From NCBI GenBank assembly GCA_964430705.1, contig CAYSGJ010000178.1:2022-66021 (forward strand): DNA of 64,000 nucleotides. Reading direction: 5' to 3'. Below the pieces are notes generated by a model that was not told the origin of the DNA, did no database searches, and was given only the letters and a program-made list of their open reading frames with translations. Position numbers and translations under genes: made by a program. This DNA is from an uncultured Desulfobacterales bacterium. GTDB taxonomy: Bacteria > Desulfobacterota > Desulfobacteria > Desulfobacterales > C00003060. Below are positions 7,046 to 48,317 of the stretch, piece by piece. Position 1 is the stretch's first letter. Each line of letters begins with the position of its first letter.

Positions 7046-8731
7046 ATGTCTGATTTGACCGAATCCGAAAAACACCTGTCGATTCCCGCCCTCGATCCGC
7101 AGGAGCTGATGGCCCTTCCAGGTAAAAAGGCGCTTGATGTCATCCTTGAATCACCCATGCCGGCTCGTCTGATCCAATCCCTGGCTGAAGAGGACTTTTT
7201 CTGGCTTGTGCAGGACATCGGCCCGGAGGATGCTCTTCCCATCCTTGCCCGGGCCACCAACGATCAATGGCAGTATCTCTTGGATATCGAGCTGTGGCAC
7301 AAGGACCGCTTGGCCAACGAGGCGGTAAGTCGTTGGCTCGATCTCCTTCTCAAAGCCGATCGCGAGAGATTTGTTACGTGGGGAATCCACAACAACCTGG
7401 ACCTGATTCAACTTCACCTTTTCAAAAACCTGGAAGTACGAATCAGGGAAGAAGAAGGTTCGGCTGAGGATTTTGGAGAAGGCTTTTTTTCGCTGGATAA
7501 CATTTTTTTCGTGCGGATAAAGGATGACAAAAACGATATTGCCATAAGACAGTTTCTGGAAGGTCTTGCCGCCCACGACCTGGAAAAATACCATCACATC
7601 CTGCTTGAAATGGGAGGGGTGCTTCCGGCGGAAACAGAAGAGAGCTTGTATCGACTCAGAAATACACGGTTGGCCGAAAAAGGCTTCTTCCCCTTTGAAG
7701 AGGCTGTCGGTATCTATCAGTACGTGAGCCCTCAACAACTTCTCGGCAAGGATTTCCAGAGTGTAAAACACATAAGACCCAGTGATATGCATCAGGTTGT
7801 GCCGGTCTCCAGTGCGCTTTACATCAATGATCATGGTCTGTTTTCGGGGGCACTGAAGCACATAGACAATGACCTCGCCTTGGAGCAGATCAGGATCGAA
7901 TTTGCCGCCCTTTGCAACCAAATACTTTCTGCAGACAGCCTTGTTGTCAGAGACAAAACGGACCTTGCAGCTATTGTGAAAAAGGCCTGTGGCTATTTAG
8001 ACATCGCTCTTGGGGAGCTGGCAGGAGCAGATCCTCAAAAAACGGTTGCCTTGTTGGAGAGGTTTGCCCTGAAAGATGTTTTTCGCGTAGGCTACGGTGT
8101 TGTCCTCCGGCTGAAGTGGAAAGCCGAAAAATGGATGGGGACCAGCTGGTTCACGAATATAGGATTCGGCCTCGATTTCTGGGAGGAAGAATGGGAGGCC
8201 ATGCTGGAAGGATTGTTACGGAAACGACCTGTTATGTATACCGACGTCTCCGATAGCAGTGAGCCGTACCGCGACTTTAGAAATCCGGATGAAATCAGAC
8301 AATGCGGCGAAAGCCTGAATGAAATCATGGCCGTGGATCATCTGCTGTCCCTGGTTTTTGCCGATCGCCCGCCAAAGCAATCCGATGGCATCGACCAAAC
8401 GGTAACCTATAAAAACCTGCTGCTGACACATTGGGCCGGGCACCACCTGGAGTTGACGCGGGAGGACCCGCCTTTGACCAATGCCCGGCTGCGGTCGTTT
8501 TTCAAAGACCTGTGGGCCGGAGGAATCAAACCCTATGTCATTAAACCAACCATGAAGGAAGGGTTCATCCGTTGGATCACGGCCAGGGCAGGCATAGCGC
8601 CCCTAAAGGTATCATCCTATCTCGAAAAAACGCTCTTCGGCCTTCTGGATGAACTTGAAAAAGAATATGGATCGGTATCACCGGAAGACCTGGATGCAAG
8701 ATACATAAGACATTTTCTTGTCATGTTGTAG
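7046..8731 (+). CDS. large conserved-looking hypothetical protein (561 aa)
   Basis: Long clean ORF with a balanced composition, acidic and helical-looking. I recognise no catalytic motif and no TM segment. Confidence 0.6.
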   Translation: MSDLTESEKHLSIPALDPQELMALPGKKALDVILESPMPARLIQSLAEEDFFWLVQDIGPEDALPILARATNDQWQYLLDIELWHKDRLANEAVSRWLDLLLKADRERFVTWGIHNNLDLIQLHLFKNLEVRIREEEGSAEDFGEGFFSLDNIFFVRIKDDKNDIAIRQFLEGLAAHDLEKYHHILLEMGGVLPAETEESLYRLRNTRLAEKGFFPFEEAVGIYQYVSPQQLLGKDFQSVKHIRPSDMHQVVPVSSALYINDHGLFSGALKHIDNDLALEQIRIEFAALCNQILSADSLVVRDKTDLAAIVKKACGYLDIALGELAGADPQKTVALLERFALKDVFRVGYGVVLRLKWKAEKWMGTSWFTNIGFGLDFWEEEWEAMLEGLLRKRPVMYTDVSDSSEPYRDFRNPDEIRQCGESLNEIMAVDHLLSLVFADRPPKQSDGIDQTVTYKNLLLTHWAGHHLELTREDPPLTNARLRSFFKDLWAGGIKPYVIKPTMKEGFIRWITARAGIAPLKVSSYLEKTLFGLLDELEKEYGSVSPEDLDARYIRHFLVML

Positions 8732-36532: not shown

Positions 36533-36860
36533 AAAATCCGGCCACCGGACACTCAAGTTCATATGAAAAGGAGGCCGAATGGGTATTGAGTCGTAAGCCG
36601 GGCAAGTGTTTGAGGTGTCTAGGCCGCGTTTGGACGGCCGCAACGCAATCAGGTTGGCACACGGCAAGTACCATGGGTCACAGATGTCATGGTCTTTCTC
36701 TTTTATCGGCCGGCCTTACGCGGCCTTGACGCCGAGTTTTGGCCGGCTGGCGGATCGATGCCCATCGGCCGGCCGAGACACGACTTGAACTTTTTAGATA
36801 ACCGTAAATCCGAATATCTAATTTTGAAATTGCGGCTTGCGCCTTGAAAACAGTACGTGC
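36533..36860. repeat. left (interrupted) arm of an inverted repeat pair
   Basis: 36552-36577 is the reverse complement of 41961-41986 (25/26). 36806-36860 is the reverse complement of 41901-41955 (52/55). The two blocks are ~225 nt apart here but adjacent in the right arm. Alignment was done by hand. Confidence 0.8.
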
Positions 36861-36880
36861 TTCGGTTTTCGAATTTATCT
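36818..36880 (-). pseudogene. relic of the 3' end of a paralogue of the 41521..41943 gene
   Basis: The minus strand reads ...HVLFSRRKPQFQN-stop, against HVSFSRRKPQFRN-stop at 41903-41943. No intact ORF lies upstream of it. Confidence 0.4.
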
Positions 36881-37216
36881 TGGACCTAACTTCGGCAAAG
36901 CCTTAACAATTCTGACCTGGCCCTGAGGACCAGGTTTTAAAAGAACCAAACAAACGTCGGAATTTTGACAACCAAAGGCGCCGCACTTTCAGGTCTCGTG
37001 CTTCGCCACAGGGGTTTTTTACGAAAAACACGCCTAACCACTCGACAACACTGGTTTTCTTATTTCCTATCGAGATCAGGCACAATTTGTGCTTTCACTG
37101 TCCAAGAGGAACCCGTCGGGCCCTGGATGCGGGTCTGCCTCATTGCAACCCGGTAAGCAAAGACCACGCTGTAAAACACGGCCCGGCTTATCGCTCATGA
37201 TTTTGAAGGCAATTGA

Positions 37217-38128
37217 ATGAAAATACTGATCGCCGAAGACAACCCCGTCTCTCGACAGGTTCTGAAAACCAGGTTGACCAAGTGGGGCTATAACGTGCTG
37301 TGCGCCGCCAACGGCGCTGAGGCATGGGAGATGCTCCAGAAAATAGACGCACCCGCACTGGCCATTTTAGACTGGATGATGCCTGAAATCGATGGGGTGG
37401 AGCTGTGTCGAAGGATCCGAAAAAAAGGCGACGAACCATATACCTATATCCTTTTGCTGACGGCCAGGGATGAAAAAGAAGATGTGGTGCTGGCCATGGA
37501 CGCCGGAGCCGACGATTATATCATCAAACCGCCCCATCCCAGTGAACTGCAGGCCCGTCTTCGGGCCGGCCGTCGCGTTATAGAGTTGCAACAACGGCTT
37601 GTCGACACGCAGGAAGCGCTCAGGATTCAAGCCACGCATGATACCCTGACGGGGCTTTGGAACCGGTCCGCGATTCAGGATATTCTCCACCGTGAACTGG
37701 AACGGGCCAAGCGCAAAGAAACGCCCATCGCCGTAGCCATGGCCGATCTGGACCACTTCAAAAAAGTGAACGATTCCTTGGGCCATATGGCCGGCGACAC
37801 GGTGTTGCGGGAAGTGGCGCTCAGGCTCCGGGCCGCCACACGAAACTATGATGCCGTCGGGAGATTCGGCGGGGAGGAGTTCTTGATTGTCTTTCCCGGA
37901 GCAAACGAAAAGCACGCCCTGAGGGCGGCGGAAAGGATCCGTGCGTCCGTAGGCGAAAAACCGGTAACCCTGCCGGACCGGATGTTGCCCATTACGATGT
38001 CTATCGGCGTGACCGCCACCAATCCCACCACTCAGGCGGGCGATACGGAAACCCTTATCCACGTGGCTGATCAGGCCCTTTACACGGCAAAAGCCCGGGG
38101 CAGAAACCGTGTCGAATTCGGCAAATAG
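37217..38128 (+). CDS. response regulator-diguanylate cyclase (REC-GGDEF)
   Basis: REC (ILIAEDNP, ILDWMMPEIDG). GGDEF domain with an intact GGEEF and an RxxD I-site (RNYD-AVGRF-GGEEF). Confidence 0.92.
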   Translation: MKILIAEDNPVSRQVLKTRLTKWGYNVLCAANGAEAWEMLQKIDAPALAILDWMMPEIDGVELCRRIRKKGDEPYTYILLLTARDEKEDVVLAMDAGADDYIIKPPHPSELQARLRAGRRVIELQQRLVDTQEALRIQATHDTLTGLWNRSAIQDILHRELERAKRKETPIAVAMADLDHFKKVNDSLGHMAGDTVLREVALRLRAATRNYDAVGRFGGEEFLIVFPGANEKHALRAAERIRASVGEKPVTLPDRMLPITMSIGVTATNPTTQAGDTETLIHVADQALYTAKARGRNRVEFGK

Positions 38129-38208
38129 TCAAGGAGCCTCAGCGCCCTGCCGAGATGAGCAATGCGGCGGTTCCTGCGACACACAATGCACACAGGAGGC
38201 GATTGACC

Positions 38209-38778
38209 ATGGCAAAGCGGTACAGAAGAACCAAGGTTTTTATTCATCCTTCCAGCCAGCTCAAATATATTGCCTTCAGCATCATCCCGGCCCTGCTGAT
38301 GACTTTTTATTGTACATATTCGCTGATCGCGAGCGGGCAGGTCGTGCTCAGGGCGGCCAAGGAAAAACCTCTGGTGCCCGTGTACGCCATCCGGCAGACC
38401 ATCGCCGCCTTGGAAAAGGACGGGTACTCAACGGATACGGCCGCAAAGGTGACTGTTCTCCGGGGGCAACTGGAATCGCTGAAAAACGCCCTGGAAACCG
38501 CGTATGTGGATACCCTGACCGAGTGGCACGACACGAAACGCGCGATATTCGTGCTGCTGTTCTTTGCCCTTCTGTTTGTAGGGCTCACCTCGCTTGTCTT
38601 TTCCCACAGAATCGCCGGCCCTCTTTTTAGAATACGCACCTGTGTGGACATGCTGGCCCAAGGCAAAAACATGCCGCCCATCCGCCTGCGCAGGCGCGAC
38701 GAGTTCAAGGAACTGGCGGCTTCCGTGGAAAACCTGAGAACCGTTCTCAATGAGAAGGGAATATTGGAAAACCGGTAA
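38209..38778 (+). CDS. two-TM HAMP-only membrane protein
   Basis: ATG at 38209 follows AGGAGG. Basic N-terminus, TM1, an ~85-aa helical periplasmic loop, TM2, then a HAMP-like segment (HRIAGPLFRI...RDEFKELAASVENL). The protein ends there. Confidence 0.7.
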   Translation: MAKRYRRTKVFIHPSSQLKYIAFSIIPALLMTFYCTYSLIASGQVVLRAAKEKPLVPVYAIRQTIAALEKDGYSTDTAAKVTVLRGQLESLKNALETAYVDTLTEWHDTKRAIFVLLFFALLFVGLTSLVFSHRIAGPLFRIRTCVDMLAQGKNMPPIRLRRRDEFKELAASVENLRTVLNEKGILENR

Positions 38779-38783
38779 TAGAC

Positions 38784-39305
38784 GTGAACAACAACCGCGG
38801 CAAATCATTCCGGCATGTCGGGAAAAACCGGGCAAGGGCCCGTGTCCGGGACGGCTCCGGAAACCTGTGCCGCGGCTTTACGTTCATTGAGTTGCTCGTG
38901 GCCGTGGCCATTGTCGCAACCCTGGCGGCCATTGCCGTCCCGGTGTTTACCCATCAGATTCACAAGGCCAGAAACAACCGGGCCATCGCGGAAATCATTT
39001 CGCTGGAGGCGCAGATCTCTGTCTATCTGGATACCAACAATGCCCTGCCCGGCAGCCTGAACGACATCGGCGCAGGCGGCATGTCGGACCCCTGGGGCAA
39101 TCCGTACGTGTACCTTCAAGTAGCGGGAACCCCGCAGGGGCAATTGCGCAAGGATCGCTTTCTGGTCCCCGTGAATACGGACTACGATCTCTACAGCAAG
39201 GGCAGGGACGGACTCACCCAGTCGCCGTTTTCGGCCCCGGTAAGCCGCGACGACATCGTACGGGCCAGCGACGGCGCCTTCATCGGGCTGGCCGAACAGT
39301 TTTAG
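38784..39305 (+). CDS. GspG-like pseudopilin (prepilin-type N-terminal cleavage/methylation domain)
   Basis: Class III signal G|FTFIELLVAVAIVATLAAIAVP with E at +5. GspG-type C-terminal motifs DPWGNPYVY and DYDLYSKGRDG. The only in-frame start is GTG 38784, giving a 31-aa basic leader. Confidence 0.85.
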   Translation: MNNNRGKSFRHVGKNRARARVRDGSGNLCRGFTFIELLVAVAIVATLAAIAVPVFTHQIHKARNNRAIAEIISLEAQISVYLDTNNALPGSLNDIGAGGMSDPWGNPYVYLQVAGTPQGQLRKDRFLVPVNTDYDLYSKGRDGLTQSPFSAPVSRDDIVRASDGAFIGLAEQF

Positions 39306-39316
39306 GATGATTCACT

Positions 39317-41524
39317 ATGAAGATCGAAACGACAATTTTTCGCAGTAAGGTGGCCCGCCGGATTTTCACCCTGTTTGTCTGCTGCGCCCTGATTCCGATC
39401 ACGGCCCTGGCCGTGTTGTCGTTCCGCCAGGTCGCCCAGGAACTCAAGACGCAGGGCCACATGCGGCTTCAACGATCCGTCAAGGCCGTGGGCATGGGCA
39501 TTATCGAAAGGCTTGTTTTTCTGGAAACCGAATTGAAAAACGCCGAGCTGGCCTTGCACACAGGCGCGAAAGACGGCGTAACAACCTTAAAGGACCCGGC
39601 CTGGAAGCGGTTCCAGGGATTGGCCTTTGTCCCGCAGCAAGGCGACCCGGAGGAGCTGTACGGCACGGTGCCCCACACACCCTTTGTTTCCCGGAACGAG
39701 TGGGAACAGATGCGCAGCGGAAAGACCGTGGTGCTCGTCCACAGTGTACGCAATGAGCCGCCGCGTGTCTTTATGCTCCGCGCCGCGGCCTCAAAAAATG
39801 ATCCCGCCAAGGGTTTTTTGCTCGGCGAGGCGGATCCGGCCTACCTCTTTGGGGTGGGCAACGAAAACACGCTGCCCCCCATGACGGAACTCTGCGTTCT
39901 GGATGAAAACAACAACATCATCGTCAGTTCCCTGCCCGTCCCACCGCCCTTGGGAGCACGGGTGGGCGGCAAGGCCGATGGGACGACCAAACGGCAATTC
40001 GAATGGGAACAAAACGGCCACCGGTACCTGGCCGCCTGGTGGCTCGCGTTTTTAAAGTCGCGGTTTGCCGCCCCGAACTGGACCGTCGTGCTGAGCCAGT
40101 CCAAGTCGTTGGTATTGGCACCCATGAGCTATTTTAAAAAAATCTTTCCTATGGTAGTGCTGTTTTCGTTCTGGGTCGTGTTGTTTTTGAGCATCATCCA
40201 GATCCGCAGAAACCTCGTGCCCCTGGAACAATTAAAGGAGGGCGCGCAACTGCTCGGTCAGGGCCTTTTCGACATGCGGGTCACCGTGACAAGCAACGAC
40301 GAATTTCAAGACCTGGCCCGGGCATTCAACGCCATGGCCGGCCAGTTGGGCAAACAGTTCAGGACATTAAAGACGCGGGCGGAAATCGACCGGGCAATCC
40401 TTTCCACTTTGGACACGGAAAGCATCGTTGAGACCACGCTGGACCGAATACCCCTTCTTTGTCGTTGCGACACGGTAAGGATCGGCGTCGCGGAAAAAAA
40501 GGCGCAGGATGCGTGGCGCCTTTACGAAAAAAAATCCGATTCCGGGGAACTGATCCGCACGCACATAGACATGCAACCCGAAACAGCCCAAAAGCTTCTG
40601 GAAAACCGCCATTGTTTTACCCTGCCCGCCCGGGAAATAACGCCGGTTTATGCGAGCCTGCTCGCGCAACCGGAGGCGGAGGTGTTGCTCGTGCTTCCCA
40701 TCTTTGTGAGGCAAGCCTTATGCGGCGTCATCGTGTTGGGATATTGGGAGCACCCCGGCCAAAACCCCGACGATGCCCCGCCGGTGCATGATCGCATCCA
40801 CAAAGACATGGTCGAGGCCCCCCCGTTGAGGGACCAGCTGGCCGTGGCTTTTTCAAACGCCCGCCTGGTGGACCAACTGGAAAAGCTGAACTGGGGCGCC
40901 CTGACCGCCTTGGCCAGGACCGTGGACGCCAAGTCGCCTTGGACGGCGGGCCATTCCGAGCGCGTCACCAAGGTAGCCCTGTACATCGCCGGGAAACTGG
41001 GTTTGGAAGAGGCGGAACGTGATCGTTTGCGGCGGGCGGGCCTGCTCCATGACATCGGAAAGATCGGCATCCCTTCCGCCATCCTCGACAAGCCCGGAAA
41101 ACTCACGGATGAGGAATACGAGTTCATCAAAACCCATCCCCGCCTGGGCGAGCGCATCCTGCAACCCATCGAGGCCTACGCCGACGTCATTCCCATCGTG
41201 GCGCAGCACCACGAGCAGTTCGGCGGCGGCGGCTATCCCGACGGTCTGGCGGGACACGACATCTGCCTGGGCGCCAGGATCCTCGCCGTGGCCGACGTGT
41301 TTGACGCCCTGGCTTCGGAGCGCCCTTACCGCAAGGGATGGGACAAGAAGCGGGTTGTCGATTTCATCAAGAAAAACGCGGGCGACCAGTTTGACCCTGC
41401 AATCGTTCGGGCCTTCTTGAAGGCCCCCGCGAAAAGCAAGCGTAAAACCCCGCCGCCTCTGCCGGCAATGACCCCCCCGGCAATCACGCCACGGACGGCG
41501 GCTGGAATGGAACAGACGCCATGA
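39317..41524 (+). CDS. membrane sensor HD-GYP phosphodiesterase (periplasmic Cache-like domain, HAMP, GAF-like, HD-GYP)
   Basis: TM1, a ~240-aa periplasmic domain, TM2, HAMP (NDEFQDLARAFNAMAG), then an HD-GYP core (HSERV, HDIGKIGIP, HHEQFGGGGYPDG). Confidence 0.9.
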   Translation: MKIETTIFRSKVARRIFTLFVCCALIPITALAVLSFRQVAQELKTQGHMRLQRSVKAVGMGIIERLVFLETELKNAELALHTGAKDGVTTLKDPAWKRFQGLAFVPQQGDPEELYGTVPHTPFVSRNEWEQMRSGKTVVLVHSVRNEPPRVFMLRAAASKNDPAKGFLLGEADPAYLFGVGNENTLPPMTELCVLDENNNIIVSSLPVPPPLGARVGGKADGTTKRQFEWEQNGHRYLAAWWLAFLKSRFAAPNWTVVLSQSKSLVLAPMSYFKKIFPMVVLFSFWVVLFLSIIQIRRNLVPLEQLKEGAQLLGQGLFDMRVTVTSNDEFQDLARAFNAMAGQLGKQFRTLKTRAEIDRAILSTLDTESIVETTLDRIPLLCRCDTVRIGVAEKKAQDAWRLYEKKSDSGELIRTHIDMQPETAQKLLENRHCFTLPAREITPVYASLLAQPEAEVLLVLPIFVRQALCGVIVLGYWEHPGQNPDDAPPVHDRIHKDMVEAPPLRDQLAVAFSNARLVDQLEKLNWGALTALARTVDAKSPWTAGHSERVTKVALYIAGKLGLEEAERDRLRRAGLLHDIGKIGIPSAILDKPGKLTDEEYEFIKTHPRLGERILQPIEAYADVIPIVAQHHEQFGGGGYPDGLAGHDICLGARILAVADVFDALASERPYRKGWDKKRVVDFIKKNAGDQFDPAIVRAFLKAPAKSKRKTPPPLPAMTPPAITPRTAAGMEQTP

Positions 41525-41943
41525 AAAAGACCGCAACAACCGTCAAGGCAACCGTTTCATGGTACCGGCACTGGATTGTCGCGGCCATCGCCCTGCTCGT
41601 GGCCTTTTTTACCTTTGTTCCGGCAAAGCCCACATACCTTCCCGACGGGTTGGCCGGGACTTGGACCTCTTCCCACCCGAGTTATGCCGACCGGACCCTG
41701 GAACTGACCACCGTGACCATGGCGTTCGGGACGAGCCAAAATACCGTGGACGTGTATTTCGTCTCCCATGTGGAAACATCGCTTCAGGGAAACAGGACCT
41801 TGTACACGGTCCACTGCCACCGCAGGGGCGGGCCCGAGGAAACCGTGCGTTTCTATCATATCGAGCGCAACGGCGGCGAGATCACCTTCAAAAACCAGCA
41901 GCACGTATCGTTTTCAAGGCGCAAGCCGCAATTTCGAAATTAG
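41521..41943 (+). CDS. small N-terminally anchored hypothetical protein
   Basis: ATGA overlap with the HD-GYP gene. One TM (WIVAAIALLVAFFTFV), then a ~100-aa beta-rich-looking domain. The last ~14 codons lie inside the right repeat arm. Confidence 0.55.
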   Translation: MKKTATTVKATVSWYRHWIVAAIALLVAFFTFVPAKPTYLPDGLAGTWTSSHPSYADRTLELTTVTMAFGTSQNTVDVYFVSHVETSLQGNRTLYTVHCHRRGGPEETVRFYHIERNGGEITFKNQQHVSFSRRKPQFRN

Positions 41944-42012
41944 ATATTCGGATTTTCGGCCGGCCTCCTTTTCATATGAACCTGAGCTTTCCGGATAACC
42001 GCATTCGGATTT
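41901..42012. repeat. right (uninterrupted) arm of the inverted repeat pair
   Basis: Reverse complement of the two left-arm blocks. Contains the perfect palindromes AATTTCGAAATT (41930-41941) and TTCATATGAA (41971-41980), and a GGCCGGCC site (41958-41965). Confidence 0.8.
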
Positions 42013-42290
42013 AAGCAGAGGCGCCAGGAAAGCCCCCTTTAAGGGGGTAACAAAAAACCAGGCCCTCCGGACCCCGATCTTTATTGCCTGTTTATCTTCT
42101 GCCCCCGATTTCTTGCTCCTGTGTCCTGCCCTGTGAATGACGGCAAGAAAAACCTCCTACCGTTCGCCCTCGTCCATGGTACGGATCGAAGGAATAAGAA
42201 CACAAGCCAAAAAAAAGAATGGCCCTATGGATATCGATTGTTATAATGGCTATGTATACTAAAACAAGGGGGAATGATCCCGACAGACCC

Positions 42291-46658: not shown

Positions 46659-48317
46659 ATGGCCCTGTGCTACTACCGTTGCAAGCCATCGGCACAACTG
46701 CCGGCCTGGACCTTTTTTCTCGTGTTGCTCACCGGCATGTTTCCCAGAACCGTTGACGGTGAAGAAGCCATTATCCCGACGGCCGGCCGGAGGGCAACCG
46801 CAGGAACAATCGTCACGGAGATCCCGGCCGGGACAGGGCGGCTCGTGAATCCGCCGCAAGAAGCCTCGATGCACATTACCGTCCAAGATGCCGTGTTCAT
46901 GGCATTGGCAAACAACCGCTCGCTGGTTGTGGAAAAGCTCAACCCTTTGATTCAGGAGACTTTTGAACACCAGGAGCGTGCGGTATTCGATCCCACCGTG
47001 GGAGCGCAAGTCTCAGCGGAAAGAAACGAAAGCGAGCGCCTGGCCAGAGCGGGAAGCACCACCGAAACGTCCATCAGCAATATCTATCGGGGCGGTATCG
47101 CTCTGCGGGAATTCTTTCCAACAGGCACGTTCGTAGAAGCGGATGTCGCCACGACAACGACCGATTCATCATTATACAGGGCGCCGTTCTCGTCTACCCG
47201 CATGGGAATATCCCTGACGCAATCCTTGCTTCGGGGGTTCGGCACAAAGGCCAACCTGGCCCGCCTTCGACAGGCAAGGCTGGAGACCCGGATCAGCCGA
47301 TACGAGCTGCGCGGATTTAGCGAATCACTGGTGGCTCAGGTCGAAAACGCCTATTGGGACCACGCCCTTTCCCAGAGACAGATCGAAATCGTGGAGGAAT
47401 CGCTCAACATTGCCGACCGGCAGCTCGCCGAAACCAAAGAAATGATCCAGGTGGGCGTCATGGCGGAAGCAGAGCTTGCAGCGCTGCAGGCCGAGGTGGC
47501 CGCTCAACAGCAGAGTCTGATCAATGCCAGGAGCGCCCTGGAGTCTTCCCGCCTGCGGCTGTTGCGGCTCTTGAACCCGCCCGGTGAGGACATGTGGGAA
47601 CGAAACGTCGCCTTGGTGCATCCGCCCACGCTGCCGGAAATAGAAGTCGAGGACGTGGAGGCCCATGTATTGCTCGCACTTCGGATGCGTCCTGAAATGA
47701 ACCAGGCAAGACTGGACATTCAGCAGCAAGACCTTGAAGTCGTTCGCACCCGCAATGGGCTTCTTCCCCGAATGGATCTGTTTGTCGGCCTGGGCAAAAC
47801 CGGATATGCGGAGTCGTTTTCAGGGTCAGTAAGTAACATGGATGAAGACAGCTATGATGCGACGGTAGGATTGAACGTTGAATTGCCGGTTTTCAACCGG
47901 TACGCCAAGGCAGAGCACCGAAGAGCGCTGTTTAGCCGGGATATGGCTGAAAAGGCCCTGAACAACCTTGTCCAGTTGGTTGAACTGGACGTGCGAACCG
48001 CCCATATCGAAGTCAACCGCACCAGAGAGCAGATTGCTGCGAGTACGGCGACCCGGAGGTTTCAGGAAGAAAAACTGCGGATTGAAACCGAGAAATTCCG
48101 GGTGGGCCGCTCTACCAATCTTTTGGTCGCCCAGGCCCAGAGAGACCTTCTGGCCAGCCGCATCAACGAGGTTCAGGCCGTAGTCAACTACCTCAAAGCA
48201 CTCATTGATTTCTACCGCCGGGAAGGTTCTCTTCTTGAGCGTCGAGGCATCGAAGCGCCCGGCAGCGACCTTGCAGATAGTTCTGCCGACAGGAACCAAC
48301 AGTATATTATTCCTTGA
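46659..48317 (+). CDS. TolC-family outer-membrane efflux protein
   Basis: Signal-like N-terminus from the ATG at 46659. Two OEP repeats with long coiled-coil segments. Confidence 0.88.
   Translation: MALCYYRCKPSAQLPAWTFFLVLLTGMFPRTVDGEEAIIPTAGRRATAGTIVTEIPAGTGRLVNPPQEASMHITVQDAVFMALANNRSLVVEKLNPLIQETFEHQERAVFDPTVGAQVSAERNESERLARAGSTTETSISNIYRGGIALREFFPTGTFVEADVATTTTDSSLYRAPFSSTRMGISLTQSLLRGFGTKANLARLRQARLETRISRYELRGFSESLVAQVENAYWDHALSQRQIEIVEESLNIADRQLAETKEMIQVGVMAEAELAALQAEVAAQQQSLINARSALESSRLRLLRLLNPPGEDMWERNVALVHPPTLPEIEVEDVEAHVLLALRMRPEMNQARLDIQQQDLEVVRTRNGLLPRMDLFVGLGKTGYAESFSGSVSNMDEDSYDATVGLNVELPVFNRYAKAEHRRALFSRDMAEKALNNLVQLVELDVRTAHIEVNRTREQIAASTATRRFQEEKLRIETEKFRVGRSTNLLVAQAQRDLLASRINEVQAVVNYLKALIDFYRREGSLLERRGIEAPGSDLADSSADRNQQYIIP

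Follow-up and report, generated by a model that had tools for sequence, protein, structure and literature searches.

What is a gene for a pilin-like protein doing in an operon for cyclic di-GMP (c-di-GMP) turnover, with no pilus or secretion genes beside it? The question is raised by a 64,000-nucleotide (nt) stretch of DNA from an uncultured Desulfobacterales bacterium (contig CAYSGJ010000178.1, positions 2,022 to 66,021; hereafter, the window), in which five plus-strand genes between positions 37217 and 41943 encode a diguanylate cyclase with REC and GGDEF domains, a protein with two transmembrane (TM) segments and a divergent HAMP domain (2TM-HAMP), a GspG-like prepilin-type protein, a transmembrane dCache-HAMP-GAF-HD-GYP sensor, and a small single-pass protein. 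A preliminary description of this DNA saw here a self-contained envelope-sensing c-di-GMP module that uses the pilin-like protein as a component and that might be mobile or invertible. Our analysis bears out the first of these proposals in its essentials and largely refutes the second. With slightly better than even confidence, we propose that the core of the operon is a conserved inner-membrane sensing module, in which the pilin-like protein, usually together with the small protein and sometimes with the 2TM-HAMP protein, serves the dCache-HAMP-GAF protein as an accessory co-sensor.

The pilin-sensor pair and its proteins

When one genome per species was scanned, at least 545 species proved to have a relative of the pilin-like protein. 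The best 80 loci were analysed by searching their six-frame open reading frames (ORFs) with the window proteins, and genes were called adjacent when they lay within 300 nt of each other on the same strand. Judged by record titles, these loci belong to Desulfobacterota, Acidobacteriota, Gemmatimonadota, Methylomirabilota, and Beta- and Gammaproteobacteria; cultured carriers include Desulfobacter curvatus DSM 3379, Desulfosediminicola flagellatus, Geobacter argillaceus, Pseudomonas saliphila, Methyloversatilis, Teredinibacter waterburyi, and Salinisphaera hydrothermalis. In 75 of the 80 loci the pilin gene adjoins an ORF whose first ~300 residues match the N-terminus of the window sensor, and in two further loci the small gene alone separates the two, which brings the pair to 77 of 80; the three exceptions are one contig end and two variant arrangements. 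The gap between the two genes is mostly about -3 to ~17 nt. The association also holds in the reverse direction: all four sensors retrieved with the sensor N-terminus alone have a pilin gene adjacent, one of them being from Koribacter versatilis Ellin345, whose genome is complete.

The output of the sensor is variable. HD-GYP forms the output in 55 loci and GGDEF-EAL in eight, while at least seven others (Pfam-checked) have HisKA-HATPase(-REC), often together with PAS; in locus L006 a hybrid kinase precedes the pilin gene. The partnership of the pilin tracks the input domain of the sensor and not its output. The recurrence of the pair, the variety of its outputs and the reverse search all agree with the earlier suggestion of an envelope-sensing module with a pilin-like component. 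We found no published description of this gene pair in the literature covered, from which subscription journals were largely missing.

The other three genes are less constant. Profile searches detected the small protein in 42 of the 80 loci and homologues of the 2TM-HAMP protein in 17, so the latter gene is an accessory of the module. In none of the 80 genome loci does the REC-GGDEF gene belong to the module; it accompanies the module only in the population of the window, in the metagenomic relative L002 (~94% DNA identity to the window), and in a more distant relative, L097, and is a lineage-specific addition outside the widespread core. L097 has all five genes in the window order between different flanks, and therefore the full five-gene order exists beyond the species of the window. 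The co-occurrence of the five genes elsewhere is thus confirmed for L002 and L097, but not for the core at large, to which the cyclase does not belong and the 2TM-HAMP gene belongs only in a minority of loci.

Some loci depart from the common layout. L058 (29-7735) and L065 (3665-10959) each contain two tandem units of sensor and small protein, with a pilin gene preceding the second unit only; here one pilin may be shared between the paralogous sensors. In two Methylomirabilales loci, L040 (905-2083) and L052 (2239-3543), the pilins are variants with RG|VTLIELL and RG|LTLIELL, respectively, and no Phe at +1. L052 has two such variants in tandem, and in neither locus is a dCache sensor encoded next to the pilin; a 2TM-HAMP gene precedes the pilin gene in L040, where just 836 nt separate the pilin gene from the downstream contig end.

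The machinery expected around a pilin gene was searched for at both scales. In the window, Pfam searches of 30 large ORFs and precomputed annotation covering 31.5-51.9 kb revealed no pilus or secretion ATPase, platform protein, secretin, or prepilin peptidase, in agreement with the preliminary description. In the 80 loci, the 133 nearest non-module ORFs represent 169 Pfam families, none of them found in more than five ORFs, and families of the type II secretion system (T2SS) or type IV pilus (T4P) are absent from the 25 commonest. The neighbourhood check suggested with that description thus places the pilin gene beside a dCache sensor and outside any recurrent secretion context.

In the window the five genes are separated by gaps of 80, 5, and 11 nt and by one ATGA overlap. 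Gene order, gaps and the motifs of the encoded proteins were all recovered as first reported.

The sensor (39317-41524, 735 aa) has the motifs HDIGK at residue 578, HHE at 631, and GGGGYP at 638, and matches Pfam HD_5 (E 3.6e-43) and HAMP (E 9e-10); it is a predicted c-di-GMP phosphodiesterase. Topology prediction places TM segments at residues 16-34 and 276-294, on either side of a periplasmic domain. This region is invisible to Pfam dCache_1, which matches neither residues 1-299 of the window protein at E<=0.01 nor any of ten homologues at E<=1e-4. An AlphaFold2 model of the first 309 residues (pLDDT 87.8, pTM 0.81) shows a long helix that leads into two PAS-like alpha/beta modules, the whole flanked by two TM helices, and among PDB entries Foldseek matches it best to the dCache ligand-binding domains of PctA, Mlp24, Tlp3, TlpA, and KinD (E ~1e-8; TM-score on the target up to 0.66). 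According to this model, the N-terminus carries a dCache fold too divergent for Pfam dCache_1, and the original "Cache-like" label is upheld by the confident model and its Foldseek matches. The GAF assignment comes from homology alone: the region is 30% identical (E 3e-17) to one that Pfam recognises as GAF. The Cache-like/HAMP/GAF/HD-GYP architecture first proposed is therefore retained, with HAMP and HD_5 assigned by Pfam, Cache by the structural model, and GAF by homology.

The pilin-like protein (38784-39305, 173 aa) starts at GTG 38784, the sole start available in its frame. Its cleavage and methylation motif G|FTFIE, at residue 31 after a basic leader of 31 aa, has the Gly at -1, Phe at +1, and Glu at +5 of prepilins, and Pfam detects N_methyl (E 2.5e-7) and, weakly, T2SSG (E 2e-4). 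Topology prediction gives one N-terminal hydrophobic helix and a periplasmic globular domain. A word-indexed search returned more than 1400 relatives. In an alignment of 34 family members E+5 is invariant and G-1 and F+1 are nearly so, and the conserved signatures are GFTL.ELL, DPWGNPY.Y, LRKDRFLVPVN.DYDLYS.G.DG, and DDIVRA.DG.YVGL. Positions 23-149 of the family profile align to residues 1-126 of PulG/GspG (5wda; E 3.2e-13), so a GspG-like globular domain is predicted from this profile alignment. All this agrees with the initial call of a GspG-type pseudopilin. Nevertheless, two defining features of GspG proper are lacking, and on that ground the protein is classified outside the GspG equivalog family: against TIGR01710 it scores 42.9 bits with a cut-off of 88.85, only residues 30-91 being aligned, and a gsp operon context is found neither in the window nor among the commonest neighbour families of the 80 genomes. 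The pilin leaders as called (38784-38876 in the window; P0001-P0120) are long and basic, with a median of 20 aa and a net charge of +3, the start calls being uncertain; a leader of this length is atypical for T2SS pseudopilins.

The small protein (41521-41943, 140 aa) has a single N-terminal hydrophobic helix by topology prediction, as expected for the anchored periplasmic protein described initially. It has no Pfam or NCBIfam match, and none of 60 relatives is named by either. Word-indexed searches returned few matches (3, compared with 30 for the sensor N-terminus); a full HMMER scan found the family in 658 cluster representatives (50% identity) at E<=1e-3. A low-confidence AlphaFold2 model (pLDDT 62, four aligned sequences) predicts an all-beta periplasmic domain, with which Foldseek found nothing at E<=0.001.

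The 2TM-HAMP protein (38209-38778, 189 aa, no output domain) is preceded by AGGAGG upstream of 38209; an alternative ATG at 38155 would give a longer ORF. The two hydrophobic segments assigned to it earlier are present, while its HAMP match, at 18 bits, is below the Pfam cut-off of 25 bits; the family alignment retains a HAMP-like signature, SHRIAGPL...GDL...LRK.D. Finally, the first gene of the operon (37217-38128) encodes a PleD-like REC-GGDEF protein (Pfam Response_reg, E 4e-28; GGDEF, E 8e-47) with the acceptor Asp of REC in LAILDWMMP and with RNYDAVGRFGGEEF at residue 209, that is, RNYD-x5-GGEEF. The intact GG(D/E)EF active site and the RxxD I-site reported for it were thus both verified.

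Proposed role of the pilin-like protein

By topology prediction the dCache domain, the globular domain of the pilin-like protein, the small protein, and the loop of the 2TM-HAMP protein are all periplasmic. We propose that a prepilin peptidase encoded elsewhere would cleave and methylate the pilin-like protein, whose N-terminal helix would continue to anchor it. Its globular domain, its helix, or both, together with the small protein, would contact the dCache domain or the TM helices of the sensor, as is suggested by synteny and co-variation. This contact would set the conformation of the HAMP-GAF region and, through it, the hydrolysis of c-di-GMP by HD-GYP. In the window the co-transcribed REC-GGDEF protein, with its intact active site and I-site, would supply an opposing synthesis, phospho-controlled and limited by the I-site, and the operon might then serve as a local source/sink pair for c-di-GMP gated by an envelope signal. 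Precedents for such a role are the signalling of PilA to PleC-PleD (PMC7196804) and to PilS (cited in PMC6058289) and the control of WalK by single-pass proteins encoded with it (PMC7355866, PMC5013275), all taken up below.

The co-variation was seen in a mirror-tree comparison over 52 loci. Distances between pilin globular domains correlate best with the dCache distances (r = 0.62), and the partial correlation of pilin with dCache, controlling for GAF and HD-GYP, is 0.38, compared to 0.07 and -0.04 in the converse comparisons. The support from these values is modest because shared phylogeny and the larger variance and dynamic range of the dCache distances confound them. Several other observations also weigh against a co-sensor role. 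The mean identity is 52% for the pilin globular domain and 28% for the dCache domain; E+5, G-1, and the region of the GspG-like Ca loop are strictly conserved, and this whole pattern is no less compatible with constraint by an assembly machine than with a static co-receptor. The small protein is missing from about half of the 80 loci, one of the paralogous sensors in L065 has no pilin of its own, and in L048 and L052 there are pilins without a sensor.

A stronger form of the proposal, which we advance tentatively and at a little less than an even chance, is that evolution has recruited the pilin fold as a subunit dedicated to signalling, so that these widespread dCache sensors, whether their outputs are HD-GYP, GGDEF-EAL, or histidine kinase, would work only in complex with their own prepilin and the small beta-protein. 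Such a complex may report on a distant T4P or T2SS machine or on contact with the envelope or a surface.

The conservation just described leads to the principal alternative, in which a T4P or T2SS machine encoded at a distance genuinely uses the pilin-like protein as its substrate and the dCache sensor reads a membrane pool of this protein that changes as the filament retracts and extends. The activity of a pilus or pseudopilus, or surface contact, would in this way be coupled to c-di-GMP or two-component output. The invariant E+5, the nearly invariant G-1 and F+1, and the conserved globular domain are what processing and assembly need and go beyond the demands of anchoring, and the pilin domain is conserved far above the dCache domain. 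There are precedents as well: in Caulobacter the membrane reservoir of PilA activates PleC-PleD and raises c-di-GMP (PMC7196804), and an interaction of Pseudomonas PilA with PilS was reported by Kilmury and Burrows (2016; cited in PMC6058289). However, assembly families are absent from the 25 commonest flanking families of the 80 loci, the protein remains below the GspG equivalog cut-off, its leader, with the reservation about start calls made above, is unlike that of typical T2SS pseudopilins, and the co-conservation of a small anchored protein is left unexplained. We consider this alternative rather unlikely.

Pili are often under c-di-GMP and two-component control, and the pilin could accordingly be simple co-regulated cargo, a structural or adhesive protein that shares an operon with its regulator and makes no direct contact with the sensor. 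MshA pili are one example of such control (PMC4624765), and a tight operon suits co-expression as well as it suits complex formation. Yet the pairing spans three unrelated output chemistries while the dCache input stays constant, whereas shared regulation would be expected to track the output; the partial correlation is specific to dCache, with none for the output domains; and the short gaps between the two genes, from -3 to 17 nt, suggest stoichiometric co-translation. Taken together, these points make co-regulated cargo improbable.

Flanking repeats and genomic setting

The preliminary description also drew attention to inverted copies of a ~110-nt element on the two sides of the operon. The repeats are real, and the identities originally given for them, 52/55 and 25/26, were reproduced. 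Half A pairs 36802-36869 with 41892-41959 (68 nt, inverted, 90% identity) and half B pairs 36552-36577 with 41961-41986 (26 nt, inverted, 96% identity); each repeat core is present in exactly two copies in the window, compared to none in 100 dinucleotide-preserving shuffles. On the right side the halves adjoin, half B (41961-41994) directly following half A. On the left they are split, with half B at 36545-36577 and half A at 36802-36869, by a nested GC-rich structured segment of 224 nt (36578-36801). The left arm lies in a lineage-specific insertion of ~397 nt (36546-36942) in the Stn/GGDEF intergenic region, absent from L002, and the right arm opens a stretch of ~240 nt that cannot be aligned with L002.

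The nested segment is single-copy in the window and folds with -103 kcal/mol on the plus strand (z = -5.75; z = -2.9 on the minus strand). Its only Rfam match, and the only match to a known RNA in the intergenic regions, is a sub-threshold one to Atu_Ti1 (E 0.14). It may be an element resembling a miniature inverted-repeat transposable element (MITE) or another structured element. Scans for promoters and terminators gave nothing above chance, with the exception of two weak hairpins, one at 36536-36550 and one at 42060-42074.

The origin of the arms is suggested by the comparison with L002, which carries all five genes at this very junction between the Stn-like and resistance-nodulation-division (RND) operons and has neither arm. 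The alignment of the window with L002 breaks at 41907, inside the small gene, and restarts near 42150-42194, so the C-termini of the small proteins differ: the window protein ends in ...QQHVSFSRRKPQFRN, that of L002 in ...QQHVTWVRTRM, and that of a third relative in ...HVTWLKAKGEA. Right half A overlaps the final 17 codons of the small gene, and the right arm has overwritten the last ~12, the arm-derived C-terminus being encoded at 41919-41943. Read on the reverse strand, left half A gives the window-type C-terminus as a frameshifted relic, HVLFSRRKPQFQN followed by a stop, and the left arm also holds ~16 nt of native small-gene sequence from upstream of the L002 breakpoint. On the simplest reading, the arms would be a recent lineage-specific partial duplication of the 3' end of the small gene, or of an unseen paralogue, with the nested insertion occurring later. 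The repeats are without a role in the function of the module. A near-invariant Trp of the small-protein family (consensus ...I.W.K) is Phe in the window protein; the rearrangement may have left the small protein with a changed function in this lineage. The significance of the repeats is minor: they record a recent local rearrangement that changed one conserved residue of the small protein.

Outside the window, a 27-nt core of the arm, TTTCGAAWTTAGATATTCGGATTT(W)CG, was found once in L041 (13923-13949) and in one metagenome contig of unrelated context, L089 (4669-4695 and ~8170-8193); these are unrelated intergenic contexts in two other organisms, and one of the two L089 copies lies beside an rRNA-like stretch. 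The core may be a short conserved motif. It is neither ubiquitous nor tied to the module, because outside the window only L041 and one unrelated contig were found to carry it, and on these counts, with the window as the part of the source genome that was searched, the arm is rejected as a ubiquitous intergenic repeat. The other fetched module loci have no arm sequence beyond this one occurrence of the core.

Contigs of the same population (L090, from JGI 3300001533, and L091-L094) are 99.9-100% identical to the window; six assemblies of this population are collinear with the window, and all have one orientation across the junctions they span, although such assemblies could miss a minority orientation. 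The Logan contig L001 ends at window positions 36913 and 41939, close to or inside the arms, which is weak evidence either way and could be explained by a branch in the assembly graph. No recombinase or transposase was detected in the scanned ORFs of the window. An invertible DNA switch was rejected on the basis of the missing recombinase, the single orientation, and the fact that the arms enclose the operon together with its upstream region: inversion would flip both and therefore would not switch a promoter. A cassette bracketed by a transposon or MITE was rejected in view of L002, which lacks the arms, and of the arms themselves, which look like a relic copy of the small-gene 3' end with a nested insert and not like the termini of one element. 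Thus, although the two arms do bracket the operon, the idea that they make the five-gene unit mobile or invertible is largely refuted, and we give it hardly any credence: the unit occupies the same Stn/RND junction in L002 without them, its orientation is constant, the scanned ORFs encode no enzyme for its movement, and other module loci share at most the 27-nt core.

The surroundings are those of an ordinary chromosomal region. The five-gene unit is placed between the "Stn-like" operon (NuoE/NuoF/GltD-like) and an RND efflux operon, and the window also encodes RNase G, Obg, ProB/ProA, the Mla system, MoaC/MoeA, an Mrp antiporter, ATP-binding cassette transporters, SerA, LepA, and a 2-oxoacid:ferredoxin oxidoreductase. 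Collinearity with L091 and L002 ends at ~48270-48290, just 3' of the gene for the RND outer-membrane factor, and beyond this point L002 runs on into a PLD/SNF2-helicase gene; the position is a strain-variable junction. A full-length DUF6178 protein (7046-8731; Pfam E 3e-151) is encoded upstream of a cyclic-nucleotide-binding/PAS protein and an Mla-like transporter.

Related systems and significance

The comparison with known systems is made here part by part. The pilin-like protein shares with GspG/PulG the prepilin leader motif, the alignment over the full globular domain, and the motifs DPWGNPY and D.DLYS.G.DG. In contrast to GspG/PulG, it falls below the TIGR01710 cut-off, has a conserved C-terminal extension (...DDIVRANDG.YVGL) and, as called, a long leader, and lacks a gsp operon both in the window and among the 25 commonest flanking families of the 80 loci. 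A census of HD-GYP proteins (Galperin and Chou, 10.1101/2021.11.05.467447) lists the dCache-GAF-HD_5 architecture of the sensor and notes that HD-GYP proteins equipped with an extracytoplasmic sensor have all gone uncharacterised; the words "pilin" and "pseudopilin" do not occur in it, and it mentions no small accessory gene. The sensor family of the window differs from the dCache-HD-GYP proteins of the census in that its dCache domain escapes Pfam dCache_1.

The PilA-PleC-PleD and PilA-PilS systems are alike in that an inner-membrane prepilin-type protein serves as the input of a transmembrane sensor, with a c-di-GMP readout in Caulobacter; in the module of the window both are predicted. The differences are considerable. 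There, the pilin is the major subunit of a linked and complete T4P, and the signal is its TM helix; PleC and PilS are not dCache-HAMP-GAF proteins and form no conserved two-gene unit with a pilin across phyla. The module of the window has instead a dedicated GspG-like paralogue with no machinery nearby, paired with one sensor family.

The extracellular domain of WalK, a sensor of Bacillota, is PAS/Cache-like. WalK is controlled by the co-encoded single-pass membrane-anchored proteins YycH and YycI (PMC7355866, PMC5013275). Gene layout and topology match, single-pass extracytoplasmic accessory proteins being encoded beside a HAMP sensor: the pilin-like protein (77 of 80 loci) and the small protein (42 of 80) are both single-helix proteins encoded next to the sensor, and by analogy they might regulate it. 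YycH and YycI are nevertheless unrelated in sequence and not pilin-like, and their system is confined to a monoderm histidine kinase. In LuxP-LuxQ and YfiR-YfiN (DgcN) it is a periplasmic partner protein, and not just a small ligand, that binds a tandem-PAS or Cache-like domain and sets the HAMP-linked output, which for YfiN is synthesis of c-di-GMP; in both systems the partner is soluble in the periplasm, a solute-binding protein in the first and YfiR in the second, and not a prepilin-type membrane protein. By analogy, the module may operate like such accessory-controlled sensors, with WalK-YycH/YycI, LuxPQ, and YfiR-YfiN as the closest cases, and it also resembles pilin-to-sensor signalling.

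What dCache domains without an obvious small ligand sense is an open question of the field, and the module described here bears on it. A compact unit of pilin and sensor, with or without the small protein, provides a concrete hypothesis for how the state of the envelope or of a pilus machine could feed into c-di-GMP and two-component signalling, and it occurs in several cultured strains and with three interchangeable outputs. If the hypothesis is true, subunits of the type IV filament family would have a third role beside the building of filaments and secretion, that of a fixed or exchangeable sensor subunit.

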